DNA from: a virus
Lineage: Duplodnaviria; Heunggongvirae; Uroviricota; Caudoviricetes
Length of the DNA stretch: 13,190 bases
Strand: one strand, 5' to 3'
Virus record (IMG/VR): IMGVR_UViG_2700989170_000010
A program made the translations under genes and the position numbers. A model generated the notes under the pieces. The model had not been told where the DNA came from. It did no database searches and was given only the letters and a program-made list of their open reading frames with translations. The number at the start of each line of letters is the position of its first letter. The first letter of the stretch is position 1. Below, piece by piece: positions 1-13,190 of this stretch.

Positions 1-483
1 AATATCTGCGGCAGCGGGCTTGTAATGGGTTAAGTGATAACAGATGTCTGGAAATATAAGGGCAAATCCAGCATCATGTTCGAACACCACTCCAACATCT
101 GTTTGAACACCTGTTAAATTTCTCTCTTGTTTTGTTTGAACATCTGCTTCCTTTCTGCTTCTTCTGGCCTGAACAGATGCTTTTCCTGCGGCTGATTTTT
201 TGGTTAATTTTTCTCTGACAGATGCCAGATCTTCCTCAATCCGAAGATGCATCCATTCGTCGCCGTTATCACAAAAAAACTCCCGCAAGGATGGTTCAAC
301 ATCAACCCATCGCTCGTTAGTCAGACGGGCAATTTTTGCCAACCTGTTTTTGGGTATTGGCTTTCCTGTTTGCCAGTAATTGAACATCAGCAACAAATAC
401 GCGCCGTGCTCCTCTGCTGACAAATGCATGGTGTCAGCCAGGTAATCAGCTATGTACAGTTGCATGTATGGTAATGCGGCCAT
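1..483 (-). CDS. DUF1376-family phage/prophage protein (replication-module type), N-terminal 161 codons; 3' end runs off the window start
   Basis: Absent from the supplied ORF track because it runs off the window. Reverse-strand translation from ATG (complement of 481-483) is open to position 1: MAALPYMQLYIADYLADTMHLSAEEHGAYLLLMFNYWQTGKPIPKNRLAKIARLTNERWVDVEPSLREFFCDNGDEWMHLRIEEDL... This matches the YIxDYLxDT...EEHGAY...W signature I associate with DUF1376. Family assignment is from memory. Confidence 0.65.
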   Translation of the reverse strand, partial: MAALPYMQLYIADYLADTMHLSAEEHGAYLLLMFNYWQTGKPIPKNRLAKIARLTNERWVDVEPSLREFFCDNGDEWMHLRIEEDLASVREKLTKKSAAGKASVQARRSRKEADVQTKQERNLTGVQTDVGVVFEHDAGFALIFPDICYHLTHYKPAAADI

Positions 484-580
484 AATTGCCCCGTATGATG
501 CTACCCGGTTGCTTAGAATAAGTGAGGTAGCCTGAGTTTAACGGACACTCCTTCCTGAAATAGAATGGCATCAGAAGGAG

Positions 581-590
581 NNNNNNNNNN
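581..590. other. assembly gap (10 N), contig join of unknown true size
   Basis: Run of 10 N. Sequence on the two sides belongs to unrelated contexts (phage gene versus curA upstream region). Confidence 0.9.
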
Positions 591-706
591 GGATTCCTCG
601 ATGAAATTATTGCGTGTTGCAGAGGGGATGTGACGGCTGCAAACAAAACCAATCCCGTGAGCCTGCTACTATTGATGGATTCATGCCAAAAGCACAGGAG
701 AGCATT

Positions 707-1806
707 ATGGGGCAACAAAAGCAGCGTAATCGACGTTGGGTTCTGGCCTCGCGTCCACATGGCGCACCGGTTCCGGAGAATTTCCGTCTTGAAGAAGATG
801 ATGTCGCCACACCGGGTGAAGGACAGGTGTTACTGCGCACAGTTTATTTGTCCCTGGACCCGTATATGCGTGGACGTATGAGCGATGAGCCATCTTATTC
901 ACCGCCGGTTGATATTGGCGGCGTGATGGTCGGCGGTACGGTGAGCCGTGTCGTGGAGTCGAATCATCCTGATTATCAGCCTGGCGACTGGGTGCTGGGC
1001 TACAGTGGATGGCAGGACTATGACATATCCAGTGGTGATGACCTGGTGAAACTTGGCGATCATCCGCAAAATCCATCGTGGTCGCTGGGTGTGCTGGGGA
1101 TGCCAGGCTTTACCGCTTATATGGGGCTGCTGGATATCGGTCAGCCTAAAGAGGGCGAAACGTTGGTGGTAGCTGCGGCGACAGAACCAGTGGGGGCGAC
1201 GGGGGGGCAAATCGGCAAACTTAAAGGGTGCAGAGTGGNNNNNNNNNNNNNNNNNNNNNNNNNNNNNNNNNNNNNNNNNNNNNNNNNNNNNNNNNNNNNN
1301 NNNNNNNNNNNNNNNNNNNNNNNNNNNNNNNNNNNNNNNNNNNNNNNNNNNNNNNNNNTGTTTGCCTTGATCACCACGCGGACGATTTTGCCGAACAACT
1401 GGCGAAAGCGTGCCCAAAAGGTATTGATATCTATTATGAAAACGTGGGCGGTAAGGTATTTGATGCAGTGCTACCATTACTTAATACATCTGCGCGCATT
1501 CCCGTTTGTGGCTTAGTGAGCAGCTATAACGCTACAGAGCTACCACCCGGTCCGGATCGTTTACCCCTGTTGATGGCAACGGTGCTGAAAAAACGTATTC
1601 GCTTGCAAGGGTTTATTATCGCTCAGGATTATGGTCACCGCATCCATGAGTTTCAGAAGGAGATGGGGCAATGGGTGAAAGAGGATAAAATCCACTACCG
1701 CGAAGATATTACTGATGGTTTAGAGAATGCGCCACAGACGTTTATCGGCCTGCTGAAGGGTAAAAACTTCGGCAAAGTGGTGATCCGCGTCGCGGGTGAT
1801 GATTAA
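707..1806 (+). CDS. curA: NADPH-dependent curcumin/dihydrocurcumin reductase CurA (YncB), medium-chain dehydrogenase/reductase family; coding sequence interrupted by N-run 1239-1358
   Basis: ATG at 707 preceded by AGGAGA (694-699). Translation MGQQKQRNRRWVLASRPHGAPVPENFRLEEDD...GQIGKLKGCRV, then after the N-run VCLDHHADDFAEQLAKACPKGIDIYYENVGGKVFDAVLPLL...GKVVIRVAGDD, stop TAA 1804-1806. Matches E. coli CurA as I recall it. The ORF track splits it into 614..1516 and 1228..1806 only because of the N-run. Confidence 0.88.
1239..1358. other. assembly gap (120 N) inside curA
   Basis: 120 N. Flanking codons (…CRV before, VCLDHH… after) imply about 58 nt of real sequence is missing, so the N-run length is a placeholder and not a measured size. 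Confidence 0.9.
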
Positions 1807-1828
1807 AGTTTCAACGGCGGGGGGAGCC

Positions 1829-1940
1829 NNNNNNNNNNNNNNNNNNNNNNNNNNNNNNNNNNNNNNNNNNNNNNNNNNNNNNNNNNNNNNNNNNNNNNNN
1901 NNNNNNNNNNNNNNNNNNNNNNNNNNNNNNNNNNNNNNNN
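1829..1940. other. assembly gap (112 N) in the curA-mcbR intergenic region
   Basis: Run of 112 N between the curA stop and the mcbR upstream sequence. Confidence 0.9.
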
Positions 1941-2060
1941 ATTGTTCTGCTGCTAATAACAACAAAGGTGGGTGGTTTATGATTATTCACTTTAATACAC
2001 TAGGTGAACTCCTTCTGCCATGCAGGCAGGGTTGGACAGAAAACACGCGAAGGAATTAAA

Positions 2061-2726
2061 ATGCCTGGAACGGGAAAAATGAAACATGTCAGTTTGACTC
2101 TGCAGGTTGAGAACGACCTGAAACATCAGCTTAGTATTGGCGCATTAAAACCTGGCGCACGCCTGATTACTAAAAATCTGGCGGAGCAATTAGGTATGAG
2201 TATTACACCTGTGCGTGAAGCATTATTACGTCTGGTTTCGGTGAATGCGCTTTCTGTCGCACCTGCACAAGCATTTACAGTACCGGAAGTGAGGCAAAGT
2301 CAGTTAGACGAAATCAATCGGATCCGCTACGAACTGGAATTAATGGCAGTTGCCCTGGCTGTTGAAAACCTCTCCTCGCAAGACATAGCAGAACTTCAGG
2401 AATTGCTCGGGAAATTACAGCAGGCGCAAGAAAAGGGCGACATGGAACAAATCATTAATGTGAACAGGCTATTTCGCTTAGCGATTTATCATCGCTCAAA
2501 TATGCCCATCCTGTGTGAGATGATTGAGCAACTGTGGATCAGGATGGGACCTGCTTTACATTATCTTTATGAAGCGATTAACCCAGCGGAATTACGGGAG
2601 CGCATAGAAAACTATCATCTATTACTCGCTGCGTTAAAAGCAAAAGACAAAGAGGGATGCAAACATTGTCTTGCTGAAATTATGCAACAAAATATTGCTA
2701 TTTTATACCAGCAATACAATCGTTAA
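2061..2726 (+). CDS. mcbR: GntR/FadR-family transcriptional regulator McbR (YncC)
   Basis: ATG 2061 with GAAGGA 6 nt upstream. Translation MPGTGKMKHVSLTLQVENDLKHQL...LAEQLGMSITPVREALLRL (GntR-type HTH) ...AEIMQQNIAILYQQYNR, stop TAA 2724-2726. The ORF-track start at 2004 is an upstream in-frame extension; 2079 is an alternative start. Confidence 0.82.
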   Translation: MPGTGKMKHVSLTLQVENDLKHQLSIGALKPGARLITKNLAEQLGMSITPVREALLRLVSVNALSVAPAQAFTVPEVRQSQLDEINRIRYELELMAVALAVENLSSQDIAELQELLGKLQQAQEKGDMEQIINVNRLFRLAIYHRSNMPILCEMIEQLWIRMGPALHYLYEAINPAELRERIENYHLLLAALKAKDKEGCKHCLAEIMQQNIAILYQQYNR

Positions 2727-2731
2727 ATTAA

Positions 2732-2753
2732 ATGCCCGGCAAATACCGGGCAT
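2732..2753. terminator. perfect 8-bp stem / 6-nt loop hairpin after mcbR; putative bidirectional terminator
   Basis: ATGCCCGG (2732-2739), loop CAAATA, CCGGGCAT (2746-2753). Lies 5 nt after the mcbR stop. The flanks are A/T-rich, more so on the minus-strand side. Confidence 0.5.
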
Positions 2754-2760
2754 CAAGTAA

Positions 2761-2863
2761 TTACTCAAATCGCCACGCAATATTCATGCCGACACCATAA
2801 TTTCGTTCATCGATAGGAATTAAAACCCCAAAAAGATTAAAAAAACACCACAAAACGGATGTT
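2761..2863 (-). CDS. possible 3' end of a convergent gene (TonB-dependent receptor-like C-terminus, yncD-like), truncated by the N-run
   Basis: Minus-strand frame is open from the gap to stop (complement of 2761-2763): ...FNLFGVLIPIDERNYGVGMNIAWRFE*. The NLF and RNYG...WRF motifs resemble TonB-dependent receptor C-termini, and in E. coli K-12 yncD is convergent with mcbR (recall). Only 34 codons are visible, so this is weak. Confidence 0.3.
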
Positions 2864-2873
2864 NNNNNNNNNN
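2864..2873. other. assembly gap (10 N); boundary between chromosomal curA-mcbR contig and phage head-module contig
   Basis: Run of 10 N. Gene content changes abruptly across it. Confidence 0.9.
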
Positions 2874-2874
2874 A

Positions 2875-3384
2875 ATCATCAAACTGTCTTGGATAGAAGC
2901 CGCAGTGGATGCGCACAAAACGTTAAATTTCGAACCCAGTGGAAGAAAGCGTATTGGCTTTGACGTGGCTGACAGTGGTACAGATAAGTGCGCTAACGTT
3001 TACCGTCACGGATCCGTTGTTTTCTGGGCCGACGAATGGAAGGCCAAAGAAGATGAATTACTGAAGAGCTGCCAGCGTACTTATCAGGCGGCGCTGGAGC
3101 GTGAAGCAGATATTGTTTACGACTCTATCGGTGTTGGTGCGTCTGCCGGTGCTAAATTCTCTGAAATTAACGCTGACCGGAAGAGCGAGAACGCATACGC
3201 GCGACGTGTGAATTACCAGAGGTTTAACGCCGGTGCTGGTGTGCATGAGCCAGATGACGAGTACAACGGCATCCCCAACAAAGACTTTTTCGCAAATCTT
3301 AAGGCTCAGGCATGGTGGCTGACCGTTTCAGAAATACGTTTAACGCCATTAACAACGGAGAACAGTATCCTGTGGATGAGCTGA
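2875..3384 (+). CDS. terminase large subunit, C-terminal nuclease-domain segment (frame A); 5' part of the gene lost in the gap
   Basis: Frame is open from the first base after the gap: IIKLSWIEAAVDAHKTLNFEPSGRKRIGFDVADSGTDKCANVYRHGSVVFWADEW...FFANLKAQAWW. The GxDxAxxGxD motif is typical of terminase large-subunit RNaseH-like nuclease domains. The ORF track starts it at GTG 2905. Confidence 0.7.
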   Translation: MIKLSWIEAAVDAHKTLNFEPSGRKRIGFDVADSGTDKCANVYRHGSVVFWADEWKAKEDELLKSCQRTYQAALEREADIVYDSIGVGASAGAKFSEINADRKSENAYARRVNYQRFNAGAGVHEPDDEYNGIPNKDFFANLKAQAWWLTVSEIRLTPLTTENSILWMS

Positions 3385-3605
3385 TCAGCATAGATTCTCG
3401 TTGTCCGTTGCTTGAAAAGCTGAAACTGGAACTGACAACACCTCATCGTGATTTCGACCGTAACGGACGTGTGATGGTCGAAAGTAAAAAAGACCTCGCA
3501 AAACGCGAGATACCGTCACCAAACGTTGCTGATGCATTCATTATGGCCTTCGCGCCAATCGATACATCGCTGGATATCTGGGAACAGCTGGGGAGACAGG
3601 CCTGA
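3312..3605 (+). CDS. terminase large subunit, extreme C-terminal segment (frame B), continuation of the previous segment after a frame change
   Basis: Translation ...ADRFRNTFNAINNGEQYPVDELISIDSRCPLLEKLKLELTTPHRDFDRNGRVMVESKKDLAKREIPSPNVADAFIMAFAPI... matches the conserved C-terminal tail of terminase large subunits (…G.v.vESK.D.kKR...SP..ADA..maf). Stop TGA 3603-3605 overlaps the portal ATG (TGATG). Confidence 0.65.
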   Translation: MVADRFRNTFNAINNGEQYPVDELISIDSRCPLLEKLKLELTTPHRDFDRNGRVMVESKKDLAKREIPSPNVADAFIMAFAPIDTSLDIWEQLGRQA

Positions 3606-5071
3606 TGGCACGAAACAAACAAGCCCTGCGGCGAACTGTGCAGGCCACAGCTGATGGTTATGAGAATTTTATTGCCCGAGTAGGGATGCAGACACCTAAC
3701 CAGCACTCAGCATCCACCTACCGGGCTAATTTCACCAGTCGTAACCGCATGCTGGTGGAATGGTCCTATCGTTCATCCTGGATCATCGGCGAAGCAGTCG
3801 ATGCTATCCCGGATGATATGACCCGCAAAGGCATTCGCATCACTTCGGAAATTGATGCAAAAGATCGTGGCATTCTCGAATCACAACTGGATGAGTTGCA
3901 AATCTGGGATGCGCTGAATGACGTGCTGAAATGGTCGCGCCTCTACGGCGGCGCGGTGGGTTTCATCATGATTGAGGGGCAGGCACCAATGACCCCGCTG
4001 CGACCCGAAACCATCGGTAAGGGCAAGTTTAAGGGGATTCTCCCGCTCGACCGCTGGATGGTCGACCCGGCACTGACCCGCCGCATTAAAGATATGGGGC
4101 CGGACCTGGGTAAACCTGAGTTTTACGATGTGGTGACCACAGCAACGGGAATTCCTGCCTGGCGCATTCATCACAGTCGCCTGATTCGCTTTGATGGCGT
4201 CACGTTGCCATTTCAGCAGAAGATGACCGAGAACGAATGGGGAATGTCGGTTGTAGAGCGTATCTGGGATCGTCTTACCGCGTTCGACAGCGCTACTGTC
4301 GGCGCGGCGCAGCTGGTCTACAAGGCGCATTTGCGTACCTACAGCGTGGAGAAGCTACGCGAGCTTATCGCACTTGGTGGTCCTGCGTATGAAGCGTTGC
4401 TGAAGAATATCGACCTGATTCGACAGTTCCAGAGTAATGAAGGCATGACGCTCATGGACTCGCGGGATAAGTTTGAAACCCATCAGTACAGCTTCAGTGG
4501 TCTGGATGACATCCTTTCGCAGTTTGCAGAACAGATTAGTGGCGCTGTTGGTATCCCACTGGTGCGGTTGTTCGGACAGTCCCCGAAAGGATTTTCTACC
4601 GGTGATGCAGACCTTGCCAACTATTACGATCGCATCAGTTCGTTGCAGGAGAGGCGTTTACGTCTTCCGGTGCGGCGGATACTGGACATCATGCATCGTT
4701 CGGAACTTGGCAAGCCGCTGCCGGACGATTTCACGTTTGAGTTTAACCCGCTCTGGCAAATGTCTGATGTCGATCGCTCAACGGTGGCGTTAAACACCAC
4801 CAACGCAATCAGTACGGCGATGGGTGATGGTCTGATGACACTGAAAGCCGCTATGACTGATTTGCGAGAAAATTCTGACGTAACCGGCATAGGGGCATCC
4901 ATTACCAACGAGGACATCGAGAATGCCGAAGATGAAGCGCCGCCCGGCATCGGCGAACCTGATGACGAACCGCAGGAGCCGTCAGGCGGAAATCCGGTAT
5001 CGAACCAGCCTACGCAGGATAGCGAGGGCGGTCGGAGACATCGTAAATGGTCGCTACGATGGTTCAAATGA
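3605..5071 (+). CDS. phage portal protein (putative; DUF1073/portal-like) with acidic Pro-rich C-terminal tail
   Basis: 488-aa ORF immediately after the terminase with a translationally coupled start (TGATG). Size and position fit a portal. C-terminus EDEAPPGIGEPDDEPQEPSGGNPVSNQPTQDSEGG is a disordered acidic tail. Confidence 0.7.
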   Translation: MARNKQALRRTVQATADGYENFIARVGMQTPNQHSASTYRANFTSRNRMLVEWSYRSSWIIGEAVDAIPDDMTRKGIRITSEIDAKDRGILESQLDELQIWDALNDVLKWSRLYGGAVGFIMIEGQAPMTPLRPETIGKGKFKGILPLDRWMVDPALTRRIKDMGPDLGKPEFYDVVTTATGIPAWRIHHSRLIRFDGVTLPFQQKMTENEWGMSVVERIWDRLTAFDSATVGAAQLVYKAHLRTYSVEKLRELIALGGPAYEALLKNIDLIRQFQSNEGMTLMDSRDKFETHQYSFSGLDDILSQFAEQISGAVGIPLVRLFGQSPKGFSTGDADLANYYDRISSLQERRLRLPVRRILDIMHRSELGKPLPDDFTFEFNPLWQMSDVDRSTVALNTTNAISTAMGDGLMTLKAAMTDLRENSDVTGIGASITNEDIENAEDEAPPGIGEPDDEPQEPSGGNPVSNQPTQDSEGGRRHRKWSLRWFK

Positions 5072-5705
5072 CAGTATCACGGAAATTATTGCGGCGCTGG
5101 AGCGTTACAGTGAAATCATCACCCCCTGGGCGACAAAGGTCGCGGAAAACTTTACTGCGGACCTAACCCGGCAGAACGAGAAAGTTTGGCGGCAACACAG
5201 CAAGAACATCAGTCGCGAGCTCCGCAATCTTGTGGAAAGCGCTCCTGTGGGCCAGGTGATGCAATCCATCATCGCCGAACAGGTCAAGTACATCAAATCT
5301 CTGCCTCTCGAGGCCGCAGACAGGGTGTACGACATCCAGAACAAAGCGATAGAGGCTGTTGTCACCGGTGGTCGGGCGGAGCAGTTTGCTAAAGAGATTG
5401 CATCTACCGGCGATGTTGCTAAGTCTAGGGCCGATCTGATTGCCCGAACGGAACTGGGAAGAGCAACGGGCGCGCTGGATATGGCCCGAGCGATAGCTAT
5501 TGGCTCGGATGGTTATATTTGGCGTACAGCCGATGATGGCGATGTCCGAGATTCCCACGATCACATGAAAGGTAAATTCGTCCGCTGGGATTCACCTCCA
5601 ACTTTGGACGGCATGACCGGCCACGCGGGCGAGCTGCCAAACTGCCGCTGCTATAAAGAGATCGTGTTTGTTCGCGTTCCATTCGCAATGAAAAGGGCAG
5701 CATAA
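4923..5705 (+). CDS. phage head morphogenesis / minor head protein, Mu gpF-like (SPP1 gp7-like)
   Basis: C-terminal region ARTELGRATGALDMARAIAIGSDGYIWRTADDGDVRDSHDHMKGKFVRWDSPPTLDGMTGHAGELPNCRCY carries the Phage_Mu_F hallmarks (ARTE..., D.RVR.SH, P.CRC). Start is uncertain (ATG 4923 or ATG 4962). This frame is closed upstream at TAG 4890-4892. Confidence 0.8.
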   Translation: MPKMKRRPASANLMTNRRSRQAEIRYRTSLRRIARAVGDIVNGRYDGSNDSITEIIAALERYSEIITPWATKVAENFTADLTRQNEKVWRQHSKNISRELRNLVESAPVGQVMQSIIAEQVKYIKSLPLEAADRVYDIQNKAIEAVVTGGRAEQFAKEIASTGDVAKSRADLIARTELGRATGALDMARAIAIGSDGYIWRTADDGDVRDSHDHMKGKFVRWDSPPTLDGMTGHAGELPNCRCYKEIVFVRVPFAMKRAA

Positions 5706-5708
5706 CCC

Positions 5709-6929
5709 ATGAAATACTTTTTTGAGACCAGGCTCGGGGAAACCCGATACCGCCTGGCTGACGGCTCGTTGCTGTGCAAAGACGTGCCGATAGGACGAAC
5801 AGGTAAGCAGCTCTATGGTGCTGATGACCTGCCAAAACTGAAACCCGATAAGTTCGTTGAAATAGTCGTCACGCGTTCTCCTGAGCAGGTATTCCATCCG
5901 GCCACGCTTGCCTCATTCGAAGGGATGAGCATCACGATCCTGCATCCTGAAGATGAAAACGGGAATGTGCGGCTGGTAAATCCCGAGAACTGGAAAGTGC
6001 TTGCTGTCGGGCACCTCCAGAATGTCCGGCGCGGGACGGGTGAGCAGTCTGATTTGATGCTGGCTGACCTTATCGTCAAAGACGAAAGCGCCATTCAGCT
6101 TATCGAAGATGGCCTGCGCGAAGTGTCGTGCGGCTATGACGCGGAGTACGAGCAGACCGAGCCAGGTAAAGCCGAGCAGGTCGATATTACCGGAAACCAT
6201 GTGGCTCTTGTCCCTAAAGGCAGAGCCGGAAATCGTTGTGCAATTGGAGACAGAGACACAATGGCAAATCAAAAGAAAAACTGGTGGAACCGCATGCGTG
6301 CGGCCATCAAGACAGGAGATGCCGACACCATGAACGAACTGGTGGAGTCGGCTCCCGCATCGGTTACAGGAGATGAGGGGGATTTGCCGCAGGGCGTTAA
6401 TCTCAACATCAACCTGTCCCCGCAGCAACCACTACCGGACAAAGCACCAGAGATGGGCGGAGATCCAACCGGCGACAGTGATGATGACCTCAAAACATTA
6501 CTGAAAGCCCTGCTGGCTAAGCTGGAAAGAAATGCCACGGGCGATAACGATAATAAGCCTGACGATAATCCGACCGGTGACGGCGAGGACGATGAAGAGG
6601 AAACCACGATTACTGGTGACTCAGCCTGGCGTGCCGAAGTTATCGTTCCGGGTATCGATCTGAGCCGTAAGATGAAACCGACCGCGTTCAAACGCGAGGT
6701 TCTGGCTTCTGCTGACAAAACGCTGGTTCGCCAGATAGTCGGTGATGCGGATATCCGCAAATTACCGAAACAATCGGTCGACATGGCGTTTAATGCCGTG
6801 TCTGAGGTTGCCAAAGGGCGAAACACCCGCGCCACCACCGGCGATGCACAGCGCCTAAACATGGGCATGACCAGTATCGCTTCCCTGAACAAACAAAACG
6901 CTGAATTCTGGGCAAACCGTAAAGGGTAA
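5709..6929 (+). CDS. putative prohead scaffolding-type protein (possibly DUF2213-like N-terminal domain) with acidic TGD-repeat low-complexity core
   Basis: 406-aa ORF between the MuF and capsid genes. Residues about 200-305 are strongly acidic and contain repeated TGD motifs (TGDAD, TGDEGD, PTGDSDDD, ATGDNDN, PTGDGEDDEEE, ITGD) plus an LKTLLKALLAKLE helix-like segment. Function is inferred from position and composition; the family name is a tentative recall. Confidence 0.5.
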   Translation: MKYFFETRLGETRYRLADGSLLCKDVPIGRTGKQLYGADDLPKLKPDKFVEIVVTRSPEQVFHPATLASFEGMSITILHPEDENGNVRLVNPENWKVLAVGHLQNVRRGTGEQSDLMLADLIVKDESAIQLIEDGLREVSCGYDAEYEQTEPGKAEQVDITGNHVALVPKGRAGNRCAIGDRDTMANQKKNWWNRMRAAIKTGDADTMNELVESAPASVTGDEGDLPQGVNLNINLSPQQPLPDKAPEMGGDPTGDSDDDLKTLLKALLAKLERNATGDNDNKPDDNPTGDGEDDEEETTITGDSAWRAEVIVPGIDLSRKMKPTAFKREVLASADKTLVRQIVGDADIRKLPKQSVDMAFNAVSEVAKGRNTRATTGDAQRLNMGMTSIASLNKQNAEFWANRKG

Positions 6930-6932
6930 AAA

Positions 6933-7289
6933 ATGAATAATGTATTTCTGTACCGGATGCCTGTTGGCATTGCCGGGGCTGTCTCTCGCCCGCAGGACTT
7001 AACCGTCGAACCGGTGGTCCTTAAATCCGATAACGCCTTCGCTGCCTATGGCCTGGCTGGTAAATACGATGATGACGGTTTTTTCGTGCCGCTGGCAGAT
7101 GGTGATACCGCAGACAAGGTGAAGGGGATCTACGTGCGCCCTTATCCGACCACGTCGCAGCCGGACATGGTTCGCCAGGTGGGAACAGGCAAGAACTTCC
7201 CGGGCGACGCCATGAAGCGTGGCTACGTGACCGTTAATCTCGGTTCTGATTTTGATGCCAGCACTATCAAAAAAGGCGATCTCCACTGA
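6933..7289 (+). CDS. small head-associated protein (possible decoration/accessory protein), apparently truncated by a frameshift at an A6 run
   Basis: 118-aa ORF MNNVFLYRMPVGIAGAVSRPQDLTVEPVVLK... ends at TGA 7287-7289, 13 nt after AAAAAA (7269-7274). The +1 frame continues open to 7422. Confidence 0.55.
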   Translation: MNNVFLYRMPVGIAGAVSRPQDLTVEPVVLKSDNAFAAYGLAGKYDDDGFFVPLADGDTADKVKGIYVRPYPTTSQPDMVRQVGTGKNFPGDAMKRGYVTVNLGSDFDASTIKKGDLH

Positions 7290-7422
7290 TGAATCCATCA
7301 AAGTGCCTCTGGGTGGATTCATGTCCACGTCAGTCAGTGGCAAAAACGTGGTGCTGACCAACGCTGAATTCACAGGTGCCGGTGATGCTGACGGCAATGC
7401 AGAAATTTCCTGGAAGATTTAA
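7270..7422 (+). CDS. probable frame-shifted C-terminal continuation of the 6933 gene
   Basis: The frame entered by skipping one base in the A6 run reads ...AISTDESIKVPLGGFMSTSVSGKNVVLTNAEFTGAGDADGNAEISWKI* with stop TAA 7420-7422, immediately before the RBS and ATG of the capsid gene. It fills an otherwise anomalous 144-nt gap in a tightly packed operon. Confidence 0.45.
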   Translation, partial: KKAISTDESIKVPLGGFMSTSVSGKNVVLTNAEFTGAGDADGNAEISWKI

Positions 7423-7433
7423 GGAACAGACGA

Positions 7434-8375
7434 ATGATTACTTTTGATCAGGCAACCGTTGACAGCTCTGGTGCCTTTCTCATCGGGGAGCTGGAGAGAC
7501 TCGACCAGACGCTGAACCTGCCACTGGTGGGGTACACCTGGAGCCGCGATATTCAACTGCGTGAAGACGCCTCCATCGCAGATGACATTTCCAGCTGGAC
7601 GAATACCAGCTTCGCCGCTGCGGGTACTGGCGCAAATCCGAATGGAAAAAACTGGGTAGGCAAAGACTCAACCGCTATTGCTGGCGTGAACGTGGATATC
7701 GGCAAATCCGGTAACCCGCTGAACCTGTGGGGGATGGAACTTGGCTGGACGGTCATAGAATTGCAGGCTGCTCAGCAGGTCGGCCGCCCGATTGATACGC
7801 AGAAGTATGACGGTATGCAACTGAAATGGCAGATGGATAACGATGAACAGGTATATGTTGGCGATTCCGCATTAAACCTGAAAGGCCTTGTTACCCTGGA
7901 CGGCGTGCCTGTCAACAACGCTGCCAAAACGTGGGCAACCTCAACACCGGACGAAATCCGCGCAAGCATTAACCAGGTGCTGTCTGATGCGTGGGCCGCT
8001 TCTGGTTACTCTGTGGTTCCGCGTGATTTGCTGATCCCGCCTGAGCAGTTTGCTCTGTTGTCCAGCATCATCGTTTCATCTGCAGGTAACCAGTCCCTGT
8101 TGACGAACCTTCAGACCAACACCATCAGCTATCACCAGAACGGTGTTCCGCTGAATATCCGCGCGGTTAAATGGCTGAAAGGCCGTGGTGTGGGGAATAA
8201 GGATCGCATAGTTGCGTACACCAACGATAAAAAATACGTCCGCTACCCGCTGGTTCCGCTTCAGAGCGTGCCGGTGCAGTATCGCGGTCTGTATCAGATC
8301 GTCACTTACTACGGCAAGCTGGGTGCAGTCGAGCCAGTGTACAAAGAAACCATTTCGTACGTTGATGGCATTTAA
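7434..8375 (+). CDS. putative major capsid protein (possibly DUF2184-like)
   Basis: 313-aa ORF with RBS AAGGA 8 nt upstream, positioned after the scaffold-like and decoration-like genes and followed by a GC-rich hairpin. Translation MITFDQATVDSSGAFLIGELERLDQTLNLPLVGYTWSRDIQL... Family assignment is from memory and unverified. Confidence 0.5.
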   Translation: MITFDQATVDSSGAFLIGELERLDQTLNLPLVGYTWSRDIQLREDASIADDISSWTNTSFAAAGTGANPNGKNWVGKDSTAIAGVNVDIGKSGNPLNLWGMELGWTVIELQAAQQVGRPIDTQKYDGMQLKWQMDNDEQVYVGDSALNLKGLVTLDGVPVNNAAKTWATSTPDEIRASINQVLSDAWAASGYSVVPRDLLIPPEQFALLSSIIVSSAGNQSLLTNLQTNTISYHQNGVPLNIRAVKWLKGRGVGNKDRIVAYTNDKKYVRYPLVPLQSVPVQYRGLYQIVTYYGKLGAVEPVYKETISYVDGI

Positions 8376-8382
8376 CAGCCAC

Positions 8383-8403
8383 ATGGCCCCCTGGCGGGGC
8401 CAT
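8383..8403 (+). terminator. GC-rich perfect hairpin (8-bp stem, 5-nt loop) 8 nt downstream of the capsid gene stop
   Basis: ATGGCCCC (8383-8390), loop CTGGC, GGGGCCAT (8396-8403). No T-tract follows, so it is a putative attenuating or stabilising stem-loop and not a canonical intrinsic terminator. Confidence 0.45.
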
Positions 8404-8416
8404 TAAGGATGACCCG

Positions 8417-8662
8417 ATGGCAAAAAATGATGCAGTAATACACGTACATACCCCGTTTGTGCTCACGCTTCCCGACGGTTCTCGGCGCGAGTTTGTTAAA
8501 GGCCGTCATGTTGTGGAGGAAGACGTTGCCACGCACTGGTTCACTCGTGCGCACGCGGAAGTATCCGTTGGCAAAGCCACAGACGCGCGTAACGAGGTAA
8601 AAAATGCCAAAGAATTGAGGTGTACTGGCAATAGCGGACACTACCATTTGTTCTTTTTTTAA
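8417..8662 (+). CDS. small hypothetical phage protein downstream of the capsid gene; C-terminus near the contig end is unreliable
   Basis: 81-aa ORF with good RBS (AAGGA, 7-nt spacer): MAKNDAVIHVHTPFVLTLPDGSRREFVKGRHVVEEDVATHWFTRAHAEV... It ends ...HYHLFFF* in a T-run 11 nt before the N-run. Confidence 0.45.
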   Translation: MAKNDAVIHVHTPFVLTLPDGSRREFVKGRHVVEEDVATHWFTRAHAEVSVGKATDARNEVKNAKELRCTGNSGHYHLFFF

Positions 8663-8673
8663 GCAGCCATCTG

Positions 8674-8683
8674 NNNNNNNNNN
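8674..8683. other. assembly gap (10 N); boundary between phage contig and yfaL-nrdAB chromosomal contig
   Basis: Run of 10 N. Gene content changes across it. Confidence 0.9.
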
Positions 8684-8845
8684 CGTAATGCCTGAAAGGC
8701 TTTGCCTGCTGGCGTGACAACTCGCTTTGATATCATATCCCTGGCATAAATCAATGGCCGCCGCGACACCGTTAGCAGAGAAAAGAGATGCAATCATTGA
8801 CGGGAGTAGAGATAAATACTCCTTGCGTAGAAAGATAATCCGCAT
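8684..8845 (-). CDS. yfaL: 5' end (54 codons) of a divergently transcribed gene, consistent with autotransporter adhesin yfaL; truncated by the N-run
   Basis: Minus-strand ATG (complement of 8843-8845), then MRIIFLRKEYLSLLPSMIASLFSANGVAAAIDLCQGYDIKASCHASRQSLSGIT running into the gap. Signal-peptide-like N-terminus. Divergent from nrdA about 700 bp away, as for yfaL in E. coli K-12 (recall). The ORF-track extension across the Ns to 8372 is an artefact. Confidence 0.5.
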
Positions 8846-9540: not shown

Positions 9541-11826
9541 ATGAATCAGAATCTGCTGGTGACAAAGCGCGACGGTAGCACAGAGCGCATCAATCTCGAC
9601 AAAATCCATCGCGTTCTGGATTGGGCGGCAGAAGGACTGCATAACGTTTCGATTTCCCAGGTCGAGCTGCGCTCCCACATTCAGTTTTATGACGGTATCA
9701 AGACCTCTGACATCCACGAAACTATTATCAAGGCTGCCGCAGACCTGATCTCCCGTGATGCGCCGGATTATCAGTATCTCGCCGCGCGCCTGGCGATCTT
9801 CCACCTGCGTAAAAAAGCCTACGGCCAGTTTGAGCCGCCTGCGCTGTACGACCACGTGGTGAAAATGGTCGAGATGGGCAAATACGATAATCATCTGCTG
9901 GAAGACTACACGGAAGAAGAGTTCAAGCAGATGGACACGTTTATCGATCACGACCGTGATATGACCTTCTCTTATGCTGCCGTTAAGCAGCTGGAAGGCA
10001 AATATCTAGTACAGAACCGCGTGACCGGCGAAATCTACGAAAGCGCCCAGTTCCTTTATATTCTTGTTGCCGCGTGCCTGTTCTCGAACTACCCGCGTGA
10101 AACGCGCCTGCAATACGTGAAGCGTTTTTATGACGCGGTTTCCACATTTAAAATTTCGCTGCCGACGCCAATCATGTCCGGCGTGCGTACCCCGACTCGT
10201 CAGTTCAGCTCCTGCGTACTGATCGAGTGCGGTGACAGCCTGGATTCCATCAACGCCACCTCCAGCGCGATTGTGAAATATGTTTCCCAGCGTGCCGGGA
10301 TCGGCATCAACGCCGGACGTATTCGTGCGCTGGGCAGCCCGATTCGCGGTGGCGAAGCGTTCCATACCGGCTGTATCCCGTTCTACAAACATTTCCAGAC
10401 AGCGGTGAAATCCTGCTCTCAGGGCGGTGTGCGCGGCGGTGCGGCAACGCTGTTCTACCCGATGTGGCATCTGGAAGTGGAAAGCCTGCTGGTGTTGAAA
10501 AACAACCGTGGGGTTGAAGGCAACCGCGTGCGTCATATGGACTACGGGGTACAAATCAACAAACTGATGTATACCCGCCTGCTGAAAGGTGAAGATATCA
10601 CCCTGTTCAGCCCGTCCGACGTACCGGGGCTGTACGACGCGTTCTTCGCCGATCAGGAAGAGTTTGAACGCCTGTATACCAAATATGAGAAAGACGACAG
10701 CATCCGCAAGCAGCGTGTGAAAGCCGTTGAGCTGTTCTCGCTGATGATGCAGGAACGTGCGTCTACCGGTCGTATCTATATTCAGAACGTTGACCACTGT
10801 AATACCCATAGTCCGTTTGATCCGACCATCGCGCCAGTTCGCCAGTCTAACCTGTGCCTAGAAATTGCCCTGCCGACCAAACCGCTGAACGACGTCAACG
10901 ACGAGAACGGTGAAATCGCGCTGTGTACGCTGTCTGCTTTCAACCTGGGCGCAATTAATAGCCTGGATGAACTGGAAGAGCTGGCGATTCTGGCGGTTCG
11001 TGCACTTGACGCGCTACTGGATTATCAGGATTACCCGATCCCGGCCGCCAAACGTGGAGCGATGGGGCGTCGTACGCTGGGTATTGGTGTGATTAACTTC
11101 GCTTACTATCTGGCGAAGCACGGTAAACGCTACTCCGACGGCAGCGCCAACAACCTGACGCATAAAACCTTCGAAGCGATTCAGTATTACCTGCTGAAAG
11201 CGTCTAATGAGCTGGCTAAAGAGCAAGGCGCGTGCCCGTGGTTTAACGAAACCACTTACGCGAAAGGGATCCTGCCGATCGATACCTATAAGAAAGATCT
11301 GGATGCCATCGCTAATGAGCCGCTGCATTACGACTGGGAAGCATTGCGTGAATCAATCAAAACGCACGGCCTGCGTAACTCCACGCTTTCTGCCCTGATG
11401 CCGTCCGAGACCTCTTCGCAGATCTCTAACGCCACTAACGGTATTGAACCGCCGCGCGGTTACGTCAGCATCAAAGCGTCGAAAGACGGTATTTTGCGCC
11501 AGGTGGTGCCGGACTACGAGCACCTGCACGACGCCTATGAGCTGCTGTGGGAAATGCCGGGTAACGATGGCTACCTGCAACTGGTAGGTATCATGCAGAA
11601 ATTTATCGATCAGTCGATCTCTGCTAACACCAACTACGATCCGTCACGTTTCCCGTCAGGAAAAGTGCCGATGCAGCAGTTGCTGAAAGACCTGCTCACC
11701 GCCTACAAATTCGGGGTCAAAACGCTGTATTATCAGAACACCCGTGACGGCGCTGAAGACGCGCAGGACGATCTGGTACCGTCAATCCAGGACGATGGCT
11801 GCGAAAGCGGCGCATGTAAGATCTGA
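9541..11826 (+). CDS. nrdA: class Ia ribonucleoside-diphosphate reductase, alpha subunit (R1)
   Basis: 761-aa [36 protein letters not shown]... with N-terminal ATP-cone and C-terminal ...[12 protein letters not shown], ending at TGA 11824-11826. Matches E. coli NrdA. Confidence 0.97.
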
Positions 11827-11835
11827 TATTGAGAT

Positions 11836-12035
<200 letters not shown>

Positions 12036-12059
12036 TTAAACTCCCAACAGGACACACTC

Positions 12060-13190
12060 ATGGCATATACCACCTTTTCACAGACGAAAAATGATCAGCT
12101 CAAAGAACCGATGTTCTTTGGTCAGCCGGTCAACGTGGCTCGCTACGATCAGCAAAAATATGACATCTTCGAAAAGCTGATCGAAAAGCAGCTCTCTTTC
12201 TTCTGGCGTCCGGAAGAAGTTGACGTCTCCCGCGACCGTATAGATTACCAGGCGCTGCCGGAGCACGAAAAACACATCTTTATCAGCAACCTGAAATATC
12301 AGACGCTGCTGGATTCCATTCAGGGTCGTAGCCCGAACGTGGCGCTATTGCCGCTTATTTCTATTCCGGAACTGGAAACCTGGGTCGAAACCTGGGCGTT
12401 CTCAGAAACGATTCATTCCCGTTCCTATACTCATATCATTCGTAATATCGTTAACGATCCGTCTGTTGTGTTTGACGATATCGTCACCAACGAGCAGATC
12501 CAGAAACGTGCGGAAGGGATCTCCAGCTATTACGATGAACTGATCGAAATGACCAGCTACTGGCACCTTCTGGGCGAAGGCACCCACACCGTTAACGGTA
12601 AAACCGTAACCGTTAGCCTGCGCGAGCTGAAGAAAAAACTGTATCTCTGCCTGATGAGCGTTAACGCGCTGGAAGCGATCCGCTTCTACGTCAGCTTTGC
12701 TTGTTCCTTTGCCTTTGCAGAACGCGAACTGATGGAAGGTAACGCCAAGATTATTCGCCTGATTGCCCGCGATGAAGCCCTGCACCTGACCGGTACTCAG
12801 CATATGCTGAATCTGCTGCGCAGCGGCGCGGATGATCCGGAGATGGCGGAAATTGCCGAAGAATGTAAGCAGGAGTGCTATGACCTGTTTGTCCAGGCGG
12901 CACAGCAAGAGAAAGACTGGGCGGATTATCTGTTCCGTGACGGTTCGATGATTGGTCTGAATAAAGATATTCTCTGCCAGTACGTTGAATACATCACCAA
13001 TATCCGCATGCAGGCAGTCGGTTTGGATCTGCCGTTCCAGACGCGCTCCAACCCGATCCCGTGGATCAACACCTGGCTGGTGTCTGATAACGTGCAGGTT
13101 GCTCCGCAGGAAGTGGAAGTCAGTTCTTATCTGGTCGGGCAGATTGACGCGGAAGTGGACACCGACGATTTGAGTAACTTCCAGCTCTGA
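12060..13190 (+). CDS. nrdB: class Ia ribonucleoside-diphosphate reductase, beta subunit (R2)
   Basis: ATG 12060 with AGGA 8 nt upstream. Translation [37 protein letters not shown]...[12 protein letters not shown], 376 aa. The ORF-track start at 11829 is an in-frame read-through of the REP array. Confidence 0.95.

Follow-up and report, generated by a model that had tools for sequence, protein, structure and literature searches.

An IS-bounded, defective head-gene remnant of a SEN34-like temperate myovirus in Shigella flexneri

Related phages and prophages

Salmonella phage SEN34 is a temperate phage that encodes an integrase and is a contractile-tailed myovirus by electron microscopy (PMC5261728). 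It joins lambda-like regulation to myovirus morphology, and Hafnia phage yong1 and Citrobacter phage Omnitron are grouped with it as related phages. Here, we compare with these phages a block of phage genes at positions 2874 to 8673 of the window, the whole stretch of DNA that was analyzed (13,190 nucleotides, IMG/VR record IMGVR_UViG_2700989170_000010). From portal to capsid, the block has the same gene order as this group and 79 to 85% nucleotide identity to it, with SEN34 at 82%. SEN34 is a complete, viable phage of a different host genus, whereas the window holds a broken fragment of head genes. The block belongs to a described phage type, the SEN34-like temperate myoviruses.

Intact relatives are also found in Escherichia coli. 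The prophage of E. coli VL40 is intact and 99.7% identical to the block after indels, and the prophage of E. coli C25 and the induced phages vB_EcoM-689R2, -611R5, -683R1, and -606R2 are each 95% identical to it. In all of these, the head module matches that of the block gene for gene (portal, MuF, DUF2213, cement, capsid, and STY1053). C25, the induced phages, and SEN34 carry excisionase, recET, and lysis genes in addition to the head module and a myovirus tail. Unlike the block, VL40 and C25 have an uninterrupted terminase of 467 aa, and the E. coli prophages and induced phages encode a 168-aa cement protein, a full STY1053 protein, and downstream neck, sheath, tube, and baseplate proteins. 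The vB_EcoM phages have a different terminase, and their similarity to the block begins about 50 nt before the portal gene.

More distant homologues come from Pam3, E217, Pa193, and XM1, which are myophages of unrelated hosts whose head structures have been solved. The portal and capsid chains in the solved heads of Pam3 and E217 are detectable homologues of the block proteins, with phmmer matches ranging from E = 2e-37 (Pam3 portal) to E = 2e-14 (E217 portal). The cement protein of the block belongs to the E217 gp24, Pam3 gp6, and XM1 gp53 families, and its DUF2213 protein belongs to the family of Pa193 gp24, a putative scaffold that is seen as a helix-turn-helix bound within the capsid five-fold vertices. 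No solved structure covers the N-terminal DUF2213 domain, and we infer its role in the block.

Gene content and lesions of the block

The block is a single gap-bounded contig of 5,800 bases between two 10-N joins; N runs occupy positions 581-590, 1239-1358, 1829-1940, 2864-2873, and 8674-8683 of the window. It has a coding fraction of 0.965 (96.5%) and a GC content of 53%, and every long open reading frame (ORF) within it that matches known families lies on the plus strand. The genes encode, in order, the nuclease half of the large terminase (TerL), portal, MuF, DUF2213, cement, major capsid, and a small STY1053-family protein (Table 1). They are closely spaced: the portal gene shares 1 nt with the TerL stop codon and, with MuF starting at 4962 as in RefSeq, 110 nt with the MuF gene; gaps of 3 nt separate MuF from DUF2213 and DUF2213 from cement, and a gap of 41 nt separates the capsid gene from the small ORF. 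The sequence-only reading had described a gap-bounded, co-directional, tightly packed head-assembly module in canonical order, and the N runs, strand, and junctions agree with that description. Its seven gene assignments are likewise upheld by profile searches and by matches to solved structures, the scaffold-like one as far as family and position go. It had also treated the module as intact, which is incorrect, as the module carries three inactivating lesions in addition to disruption by IS2.

Table 1. Features of the block and its edges, with positions in the window
Feature	Position	Strand	Basis or remark
10-N contig join	2864..2873		closed relatives have a 1,331-bp IS2 copy here
TerL 3' part, pseudogene, codons ~222-467 (nuclease domain)	2874..3605	+	alignment to intact E. 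coli VL40 TerL; phrog_2 terminase large subunit, 7e-08
Portal, 488 aa, intact	3605..5071	+	PF06381 Phage_portal_3, 3.3e-106; phrog_146 portal, 3e-174
MuF/SPP1-gp7-type minor head (head morphogenesis) protein, 247 aa	4962..5705	+	PF04233, 1.5e-18; phrog_324 head morphogenesis, 9.5e-86; TIGR01641 phageSPP1_gp7
DUF2213/Pa193-gp24-family protein, 406 aa	5709..6929	+	PF09979, 2.5e-41; phrog_1961, 6e-196
Cement/decoration gene, truncated to 118 aa (intact 168 aa)	6933..7289	+	PF23982 XM1_gp53 minor capsid, 4e-22; PF22758 Phage_cement, 3e-12
Major capsid protein, 313 aa, intact	7434..8375	+	PF09950 Major_capside, 2.6e-85; phrog_264 major head protein, 5e-97
STY1053-family small phage gene, first 66/73 codons, cut by IS600	8417..8615	+	NF047914 phage_STY1053, 1.3e-19; phrog_6497, 1.6e-49
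IS600 terminal 58 nt, begins TGAGGTGTACTGGCAATAGCGGACAC	8616..8673	-	100% match to annotated IS600 copies in related genomes
10-N contig join	8674..8683		next contig yfaL'-nrdA-nrdB; not the block's neighbor in closed genomes

The large terminase gene adjoins the portal gene in the same orientation, and the copy in the window is a pseudogene. In its intact form, this TerL matches TIGR01547 (PBSX-family TerL), and the VL40 protein matches Sf6 gp2 (PDB 4idh) at 2.5e-79, with nuclease-domain chains aligning to residues 212-453. The earlier identification of a terminase nuclease domain was correct, but a 7-nt deletion at 3312/3313, where one copy of a tandem TGGTGGC was lost, breaks the domain into two frames (2875-3384 and 3312-3605). 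The 488-aa protein is a portal by HMM search (PF06381) and matches the solved portals of Pam3 (8hds, 2.4e-37) and E217 (gp19, 8fvh, 1.9e-14). The 313-aa protein is a major capsid protein by the same kind of search (PF09950), and it matches the solved Pam3 major capsid (8hdt) at 4.9e-18 over residues 72-312.

For the MuF gene, we took the start at 4962 from the RefSeq annotation of a related genome, which gives a protein of 247 aa. The Pfam MuF domain covers residues 137-243 of the 260-aa ORF, which has no second Pfam domain and no C-terminal toxin domain, and the protein has no match among PDB sequences. A PADLOC scan of 10 proteins, including two from minus-strand ORFs, gave no significant defense match; the lone match for MuF was to PycTIR, below threshold (E = 0.006). 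The claims that MuF lacks a toxin fusion and that the block lacks defense-type cargo are therefore both sustained.

The DUF2213 protein occupies the scaffold/protease position between the portal and capsid genes. Its N-terminal DUF2213 domain is followed by an acidic stretch of low complexity and then by a helical C-terminus, and its conserved residues include the invariant H79, H102, S140, and H164. It is probably a scaffolding protein; it also matches phrog_12864 and phrog_530, related families labeled "head maturation protease." Single-sequence and profile searches of this protein against PDB sequences returned nothing meaningful. An AlphaFold2 model had a mean pLDDT of 41 and a pTM of 0.27, with only the C-terminal helices reaching a pLDDT of 60 to 80; its input was an alignment of 30 sequences, every homologue being at least 76% identical to the query, and the model is too poor for a fold search.

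Both Pfam matches of the cement protein break off at about position 105-112 of profiles that are 146-154 long. The protein is truncated by a 17-nt deletion at 7279/7280, which leaves the rest of the gene out of frame at 7282-7422 and accounts for the seemingly noncoding stretch at 7290-7433. The ORF had been read as small and decoration-like: the family is right, whereas the small size reflects truncation of a 168-aa protein. No PDB sequence matched the cement protein. The last ORF, of 81 aa, is listed simply as a small ORF in the sequence-only reading; it is a chimera, in which codons 1-66 are from an STY1053-family gene and the last 15 codons come from the IS600 terminus.

Searches within the block found no Rfam RNA family. 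Promoter and terminator scans of the block gave results at or below shuffled expectation, which fits a promoterless operon fragment, and a GC-rich hairpin past the capsid gene (about 8383-8403) was not significantly more stable than shuffles (z = -1.46).

The same remnant in closed S. flexneri chromosomes

The block is identical at 5,800 of 5,800 bases to the closed chromosome of S. flexneri 2013C-3749 (CP034931.1; PMC9455713). It is therefore already known, being identical to sequence in closed, annotated S. flexneri genomes. The same prophage remnant is present in other closed S. flexneri chromosomes, for example those of FDAARGOS_690 (CP055138.1), AUSMDU00010535 (CP045941.1), and 61-4982 (CP026792.1), and three closed relatives other than CP034931.1 differ from the block by 1 to 3 bases over the same span. 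In the closed relatives, gene order, both deletions (7 nt and 17 nt), and the IS2 and IS600 edges are as in the block. Strain 61-4982 has one additional IS, within the DUF2213 gene, and otherwise nothing of substance differs; NXMF01000001.1 has extra IS2-related sequence at the left edge. The portal, MuF, DUF2213, and capsid ORFs are full-length in seven of eight closed relatives. Both deletions, the IS600 truncation of the small gene, and an identical 118-aa cement product occur in all eight; because these are independent closed genomes, we rejected sequencing error as the source of the two frameshifts.

The genome of the window's own strain is not closed, and we infer its flanks from the identical or near-identical closed genomes. 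At the left edge in these genomes, IS2 is inserted in the terminase gene with a 5-bp duplication (GCAAT), and it separates the nuclease half from the ATPase half, which lies just beyond it. In the local region of CP034931.1, IS2 spans 4609-5939 with GCAAT on both sides, and the block starts at 5942. Past IS600 on the right lies a Mu-type transposase/ner/repressor remnant, followed by dcuC-pagP-cspE-crcB, and neither the window nor the closed relatives past IS600 have any neck or tail genes following the head module. The integration context, described earlier as not visible, can thus be read directly from closed relatives. The proposal that genes are missing merely because the block ends at contig edges holds for the ATPase half of the terminase, but not for the tail genes, which are not adjacent. 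The window itself has no integrase or attachment sites bounding the element. In CP026772.1, a truncated integrase of 256 aa, which may belong to this prophage, is encoded next to a 427-aa pectinesterase gene some 3 kb upstream, with IS copies in between. We take the pectinesterase gene to be the ybhC of E. coli.

Because IS2 and IS600 are multicopy elements, short-read assemblers stop at them and produce a recurrent contig of about 5.8 kb; for the same reason, the 10-N joins and the absent context are products of assembly rather than of biology. The IS600 tail at 8616-8673 by itself matches thousands of places, and this repeat caused the right-hand contig break. The missing integration context is an assembly artifact. 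The exact 118-aa truncated cement product has entries in 3,048 blocks of the collection; in 2,326 of these, the longest contig that carries it measures 5 to 10 kb. The window as a whole is of low quality, having been strung together from contigs of chromosomal regions that are not linked (curA-mcbR-pqqU, the phage block, and yfaL-nrdAB). The block had been called the only clearly accessory DNA here; however, the window also contains an IS2 end (1-70), a fragment of ydaU from a Rac-type prophage (71-522), and an IS600 end (523-580).

Origin and fate of the block

We consider it very likely, with a probability of roughly 0.93, that the block is a defective fragment from the middle of a late operon that came from a SEN34-type temperate myovirus, fixed in the S. 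flexneri chromosome and cut by IS elements on both sides. The parent phage would have had lambdoid early genes and a contractile tail, and the block would be the surviving middle of its late (head-morphogenesis) operon. From what is established for these protein families, head assembly in an intact relative would involve four steps: a headful terminase of the P22/Sf6 type docks onto the portal dodecamer, the MuF/gp7 protein joins the portal, the HK97-fold capsid protein assembles with the DUF2213 protein as its scaffold, and the cement protein clamps the expanded shell. Inactivation came from IS2 splitting the terminase gene, a 7-nt slippage deletion shifting the frame of its nuclease half, a 17-nt deletion shortening the cement protein from 168 to 118 aa, and an IS600-associated rearrangement that removed everything past STY1053 codon 66, including all neck and tail genes. 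The head module is dead as a phage and cannot make phage in this genome. Full-length portal, MuF, DUF2213, and capsid ORFs leave room for some residual expression or use.

Such use is the basis of one alternative, which we regard as very improbable: the block may be a domesticated capsid cassette that is kept because it serves the host, for instance by disturbing the assembly of superinfecting phages or by forming capsid-like particles. The four full-length structural ORFs are near-identical across closed genomes of several serotypes, and the same contig recurs in thousands of assemblies. S. flexneri is, however, a young, clonal, IS-ridden lineage, so that retention is expected without selection, and an IS has already cost the 61-4982 lineage its DUF2213 gene. 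Differences from VL40, about 10 nonsynonymous to 4 synonymous substitutions in a small sample, suggest relaxed constraint, close to neutral. In addition, the cement gene is broken, no promoter-like signal rises above chance, IS2 severs the block from the late promoter, and no protein matches a defense family. Retention of the IS-bounded portal/MuF/scaffold/capsid cassette because it is expressed, and interferes with assembly of related superinfecting phages or forms capsid-like particles, is equally improbable; if this were so, the cassette would be a domesticated remnant, not neutral debris.

It is still less probable that the block belongs to a complete prophage that can still be induced and whose terminase ATPase half, small terminase, tail, lysis, and integrase genes lie on other contigs. 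The window does break at both edges of the block, and complete relatives exist in E. coli and as induced phages. However, the closed genome that is identical over the whole block has IS2 within the terminase gene, the Mu-like remnant and chromosomal genes take the place of tail genes past IS600, and no closed relative examined has the terminase or the cement gene in frame. Least probable of all is an assembly chimera or contaminant contig, as the several N runs and low-quality joining of unlinked contigs might suggest, given that the internal order of the block follows that of intact prophages and phages and that of closed chromosomes, one of which it matches base for base.

The reading that we prefer, a defective late-operon fragment, carries little biological weight, as each protein of the block can be placed in a Pfam or PHROG family that already exists. 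In practice, it serves as a worked example. Accessory DNA enclosed by gaps in draft assemblies of Shigella is usually a contig bounded by IS elements. In this window, what lies on the other side of a 10-N join is uninformative, and a small ORF at the end of a contig can be fused to an IS terminus.

Composition of the block and its neighboring contigs

The block (window 2874-8673) is exactly one contig of 5,800 bases, with a GC content of 53% and 96.5% coding on the plus strand. Profile searches bore out each gene assignment that the sequence-only reading had made for a phage head-assembly module (see table). The terminase remnant is 96 to 99% identical to residues ~222 to 467 of the intact 467-aa terminase large subunit (TerL) of Escherichia coli VL40, and this intact protein matches gp2 of Shigella phage Sf6 (PDB 4idh, 2.5e-79) as well as TIGR01547. 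The portal matches the solved structures of the Pam3 portal (8hds, 2e-37) and E217 gp19, and the major capsid protein matches the solved Pam3 capsid (8hdt, 5e-18). No additional domain was detected in the MuF protein by profile searches. Given the RefSeq start of MuF, the last 110 nt of the portal gene (4962-5071) also lie in the MuF gene, in a different frame; this overlap looks real, because MuF-frame similarity to phage vB_EcoM-689R2 and phrog_324 reaches into it.

Features of the window by position, with profile matches and E values
Feature	Position	Strand	Profile match or remark
IS2 right end	1-70		
ydaU-family (Rac-type prophage) gene fragment	71-522		
IS600 end	523-580		
N runs	581-590, 1239-1358, 1829-1940, 2864-2873, 8674-8683		
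Terminase large subunit, C-terminal (nuclease) half	2874-3605	+	phrog_2, 7e-08
Portal	3605-5071	+	PF06381, 3e-106; phrog_146, 3e-174
MuF / SPP1-gp7 minor head protein	4962-5705	+	PF04233; TIGR01641; phrog_324, 1e-85
DUF2213 protein	5709-6929	+	PF09979, 2.5e-41
Cement/decoration protein	6933-7289	+	PF23982 XM1_gp53; PF22758 E217 gp24 / Pam3 gp6
Major capsid protein	7434-8375	+	PF09950, 2.6e-85; phrog_264
STY1053-family gene, start only	8417-8615	+	NF047914, 1.3e-19
yfaL 5' end (autotransporter gene)	8684-8845	-	cut by contig edge
nrdA and nrdB	within 9541-13190	+	window end is nrdB stop

The collection's precomputed Pfam labels name the DUF2213 family Pa193_gp24, and related PHROGs carry the label head maturation protease. 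In phage Pa193, residues 286 to 326 of gp24, which the authors termed a putative scaffolding protein, form a helix-turn-helix bound beneath the capsid five-fold vertices (PMC11456595). A Tn-seq and CRISPRi study of Burkholderia cenocepacia labeled DUF2213 (gene BCAM1066) a "putative essential domain" (PMC8770471). Here, the gene sits in a phage head-gene position and, in S. flexneri 61-4982 (CP026792.1) alone among the closed relatives, is disrupted by a further insertion sequence; the essentiality claim probably applies only in the setting of the Burkholderia prophage.

PADLOC reported no defense protein in the block, and the earlier statement that no novel system could be supported was accurate; the two longest minus-strand ORFs had no match in that scan, and the block's minus-strand ORFs carry no annotation in any relative. 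Promoter-like and terminator-like sites in the block did not exceed shuffled expectation. A GC-rich 8-bp hairpin (ATGGCCCC...GGGGCCAT) without a T-run lies at 8383-8403, directly 3' of the capsid stop, and its stability is not significantly above that of shuffles (z = -1.46).

The window is a series of draft contigs, and those beside the block are other chromosomal regions (curA-mcbR-pqqU on the left, yfaL'-nrdA-nrdB on the right) that do not adjoin it in closed genomes; contig order across the joins is uninformative. The first small contig (1-580) consists of ydaU-family DNA with insertion sequences at both ends; contrary to the earlier claim, the window thus holds accessory DNA besides the block. 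The contig at 591-2863 has curA, mcbR, and the terminal part of pqqU (yncD) and matches E. coli at ~98% identity, with 2807-2863 outside the match; G-runs flanking its two sized gaps, of 120 N and 112 N, suggest low-quality read ends. A 157-aa minus-strand ORF at 8372-8845 is an artifact that runs across an N join. The only Rfam match in the window was naRNA4, a nucleoid-associated, REP-derived sRNA family, between nrdA and nrdB (11883-11953, minus strand, 76 bits).

Lesions relative to the nearest intact copy

We defined lesions against the nearest intact copy, the prophage of E. coli VL40, from which the window differs at 17 positions in 5,742 aligned bases. A 7-nt deletion at 3312/3313, which removes one copy of a tandem TGGTGGC, frameshifts the terminase remnant into overlapping ORFs (2905-3384 and 3312-3605). 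A second deletion, of 17 nt at 7279/7280, cuts the 168-aa cement protein to 118 aa and puts the gene's final 46 codons out of frame (7282-7422), which accounts for the 144 nt that look oddly "intergenic" ahead of the capsid gene. The STY1053-family gene meets an IS600 junction after codon 66 of 73; therefore, the 81-aa ORF in the window ends in 15 IS600-translated residues. These three lesions and the IS600 tail were missed by the sequence-only reading. Sequencing errors are ruled out as their source, because the three occur together in each of the eight closed relatives.

Coding differences from VL40 comprise approximately 10 nonsynonymous and 4 synonymous substitutions, a pattern compatible with relaxed constraint in numbers too small to test. 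Four ORFs are still whole, which would favor a domesticated capsid cassette; however, the DUF2213 gene has already been lost in one lineage, the substitution pattern looks neutral, and the block has no promoter signal, making domestication very improbable.

Closed chromosomes and insertion-sequence boundaries

A public collection lists the exact 118-aa product of the cement gene in 3,048 blocks. The longest contig bearing it is only 5 to 10 kb in 2,326 of these, and it is also present in closed chromosomes of 4.5 to 4.7 Mb. Four closed-chromosome accessions are given as Shigella flexneri (PMC9455713). The block is identical to CP034931.1 (S. flexneri strain 2013C-3749, serotype 3b) at 5,800 of 5,800 positions (L004:5942-11741, the locus from that chromosome) and differs from three more closed relatives by 1 to 3 bases.

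At the left edge of the block, the closed genomes carry a 1,331-bp IS2 within the terminase gene, flanked by a duplicated 5-bp target (GCAAT), and the window contig begins at base 3 of the right-hand GCAAT. The sequence across IS2 holds the ATPase half of the terminase gene, an upstream ORF of 254 aa, a gene of the DedA family, and a fragment of Rz1. At the right edge is IS600, whose terminus forms the final 58 bases of the block (8616-8673) and alone accounts for thousands of surplus megablast matches. The 10-N joins thus mark multi-copy insertion sequences that halted a short-read assembler.

Directly past IS600 in the eight closed relatives is a Mu-type remnant (L002-L009:12945-15471) encoding a 544-aa transposase, a ner-like helix-turn-helix protein, and a repressor-like protein, which abuts dcuC-pagP-cspE-crcB; no phage continuation was found beyond IS600 in these genomes. 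Because this remnant replaces the phage, the junction is a deletion or rearrangement end point rather than a simple insertion, and two unrelated phage remnants are joined through IS600. The absence of tail genes, previously ascribed to contig edges, is therefore real loss according to the closed genomes, which likewise contradict an intact prophage distributed over other contigs. An assembly chimera, one of the cases that would have overturned the earlier reading, is contradicted by perfect collinearity with closed chromosomes.

In CP026772.1, a truncated 256-aa phage integrase adjoins a 427-aa pectinesterase gene (L008:1-1028), which we take to be ybhC of E. coli, on the lambda attB side. This pair lies ~3 kb upstream, with IS copies between it and the terminase fragment, and may mark where the S. 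flexneri prophage first integrated.

Intact relatives and the fate of the module

E. coli C25 carries the same head module at 95% identity inside a ~41-kb prophage, which includes excisionase, recET, kilR, ydaT-type regulators, lysis genes, and TerL, followed after the head module by neck-terminator, sheath-like (DUF3383), tube-like (DUF3277), baseplate J, and fiber genes, and which ends adjoining pphA-yebW. The similar VL40 copy, near-identical to the block but fuller, is riddled with insertion sequences (IS600, IS1, IS2, IS4, and IS150) and ends at ipaH, a type III secretion E3 ligase gene (L001:44335-45766 in the VL40 locus). VL40 looks like an EIEC/Shigella-like genome, and this arrangement suggests that ipaH is carried as a moron by the block's phage type. 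The induced phages vB_EcoM-689R2, -611R5, -683R1, and -606R2 are 95% identical to the block from just before the portal gene on, and Salmonella phage SEN34, Citrobacter phage Omnitron, and Hafnia phage yong1 are 79 to 85% identical. SEN34 is a temperate phage regulated in a lambda-like manner, and electron microscopy showed a myovirus morphology (PMC5261728). The block is already known: closed genomes contain its sequence in annotated form, its phage type has been described, and all its proteins belong to existing families.

The gene identities, the insertion-sequence boundaries, the frameshifts, and the match to closed genomes are direct observations. Judging from general knowledge of these families, an intact relative would use a P22/Sf6-type headful terminase to package DNA via the portal, MuF/gp7 would bind the portal, the DUF2213 protein would scaffold and possibly also process the capsid protein, and cement trimers would stabilize the shell. 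In this genome, the module can yield no phage, because the terminase gene is both split and out of frame, the cement protein is cut short, the tail genes are missing, and IS2 would sever the head operon from upstream sequences. The best explanation, to which we assign a probability of approximately 93%, is that the block is a neutral, decaying prophage remnant.
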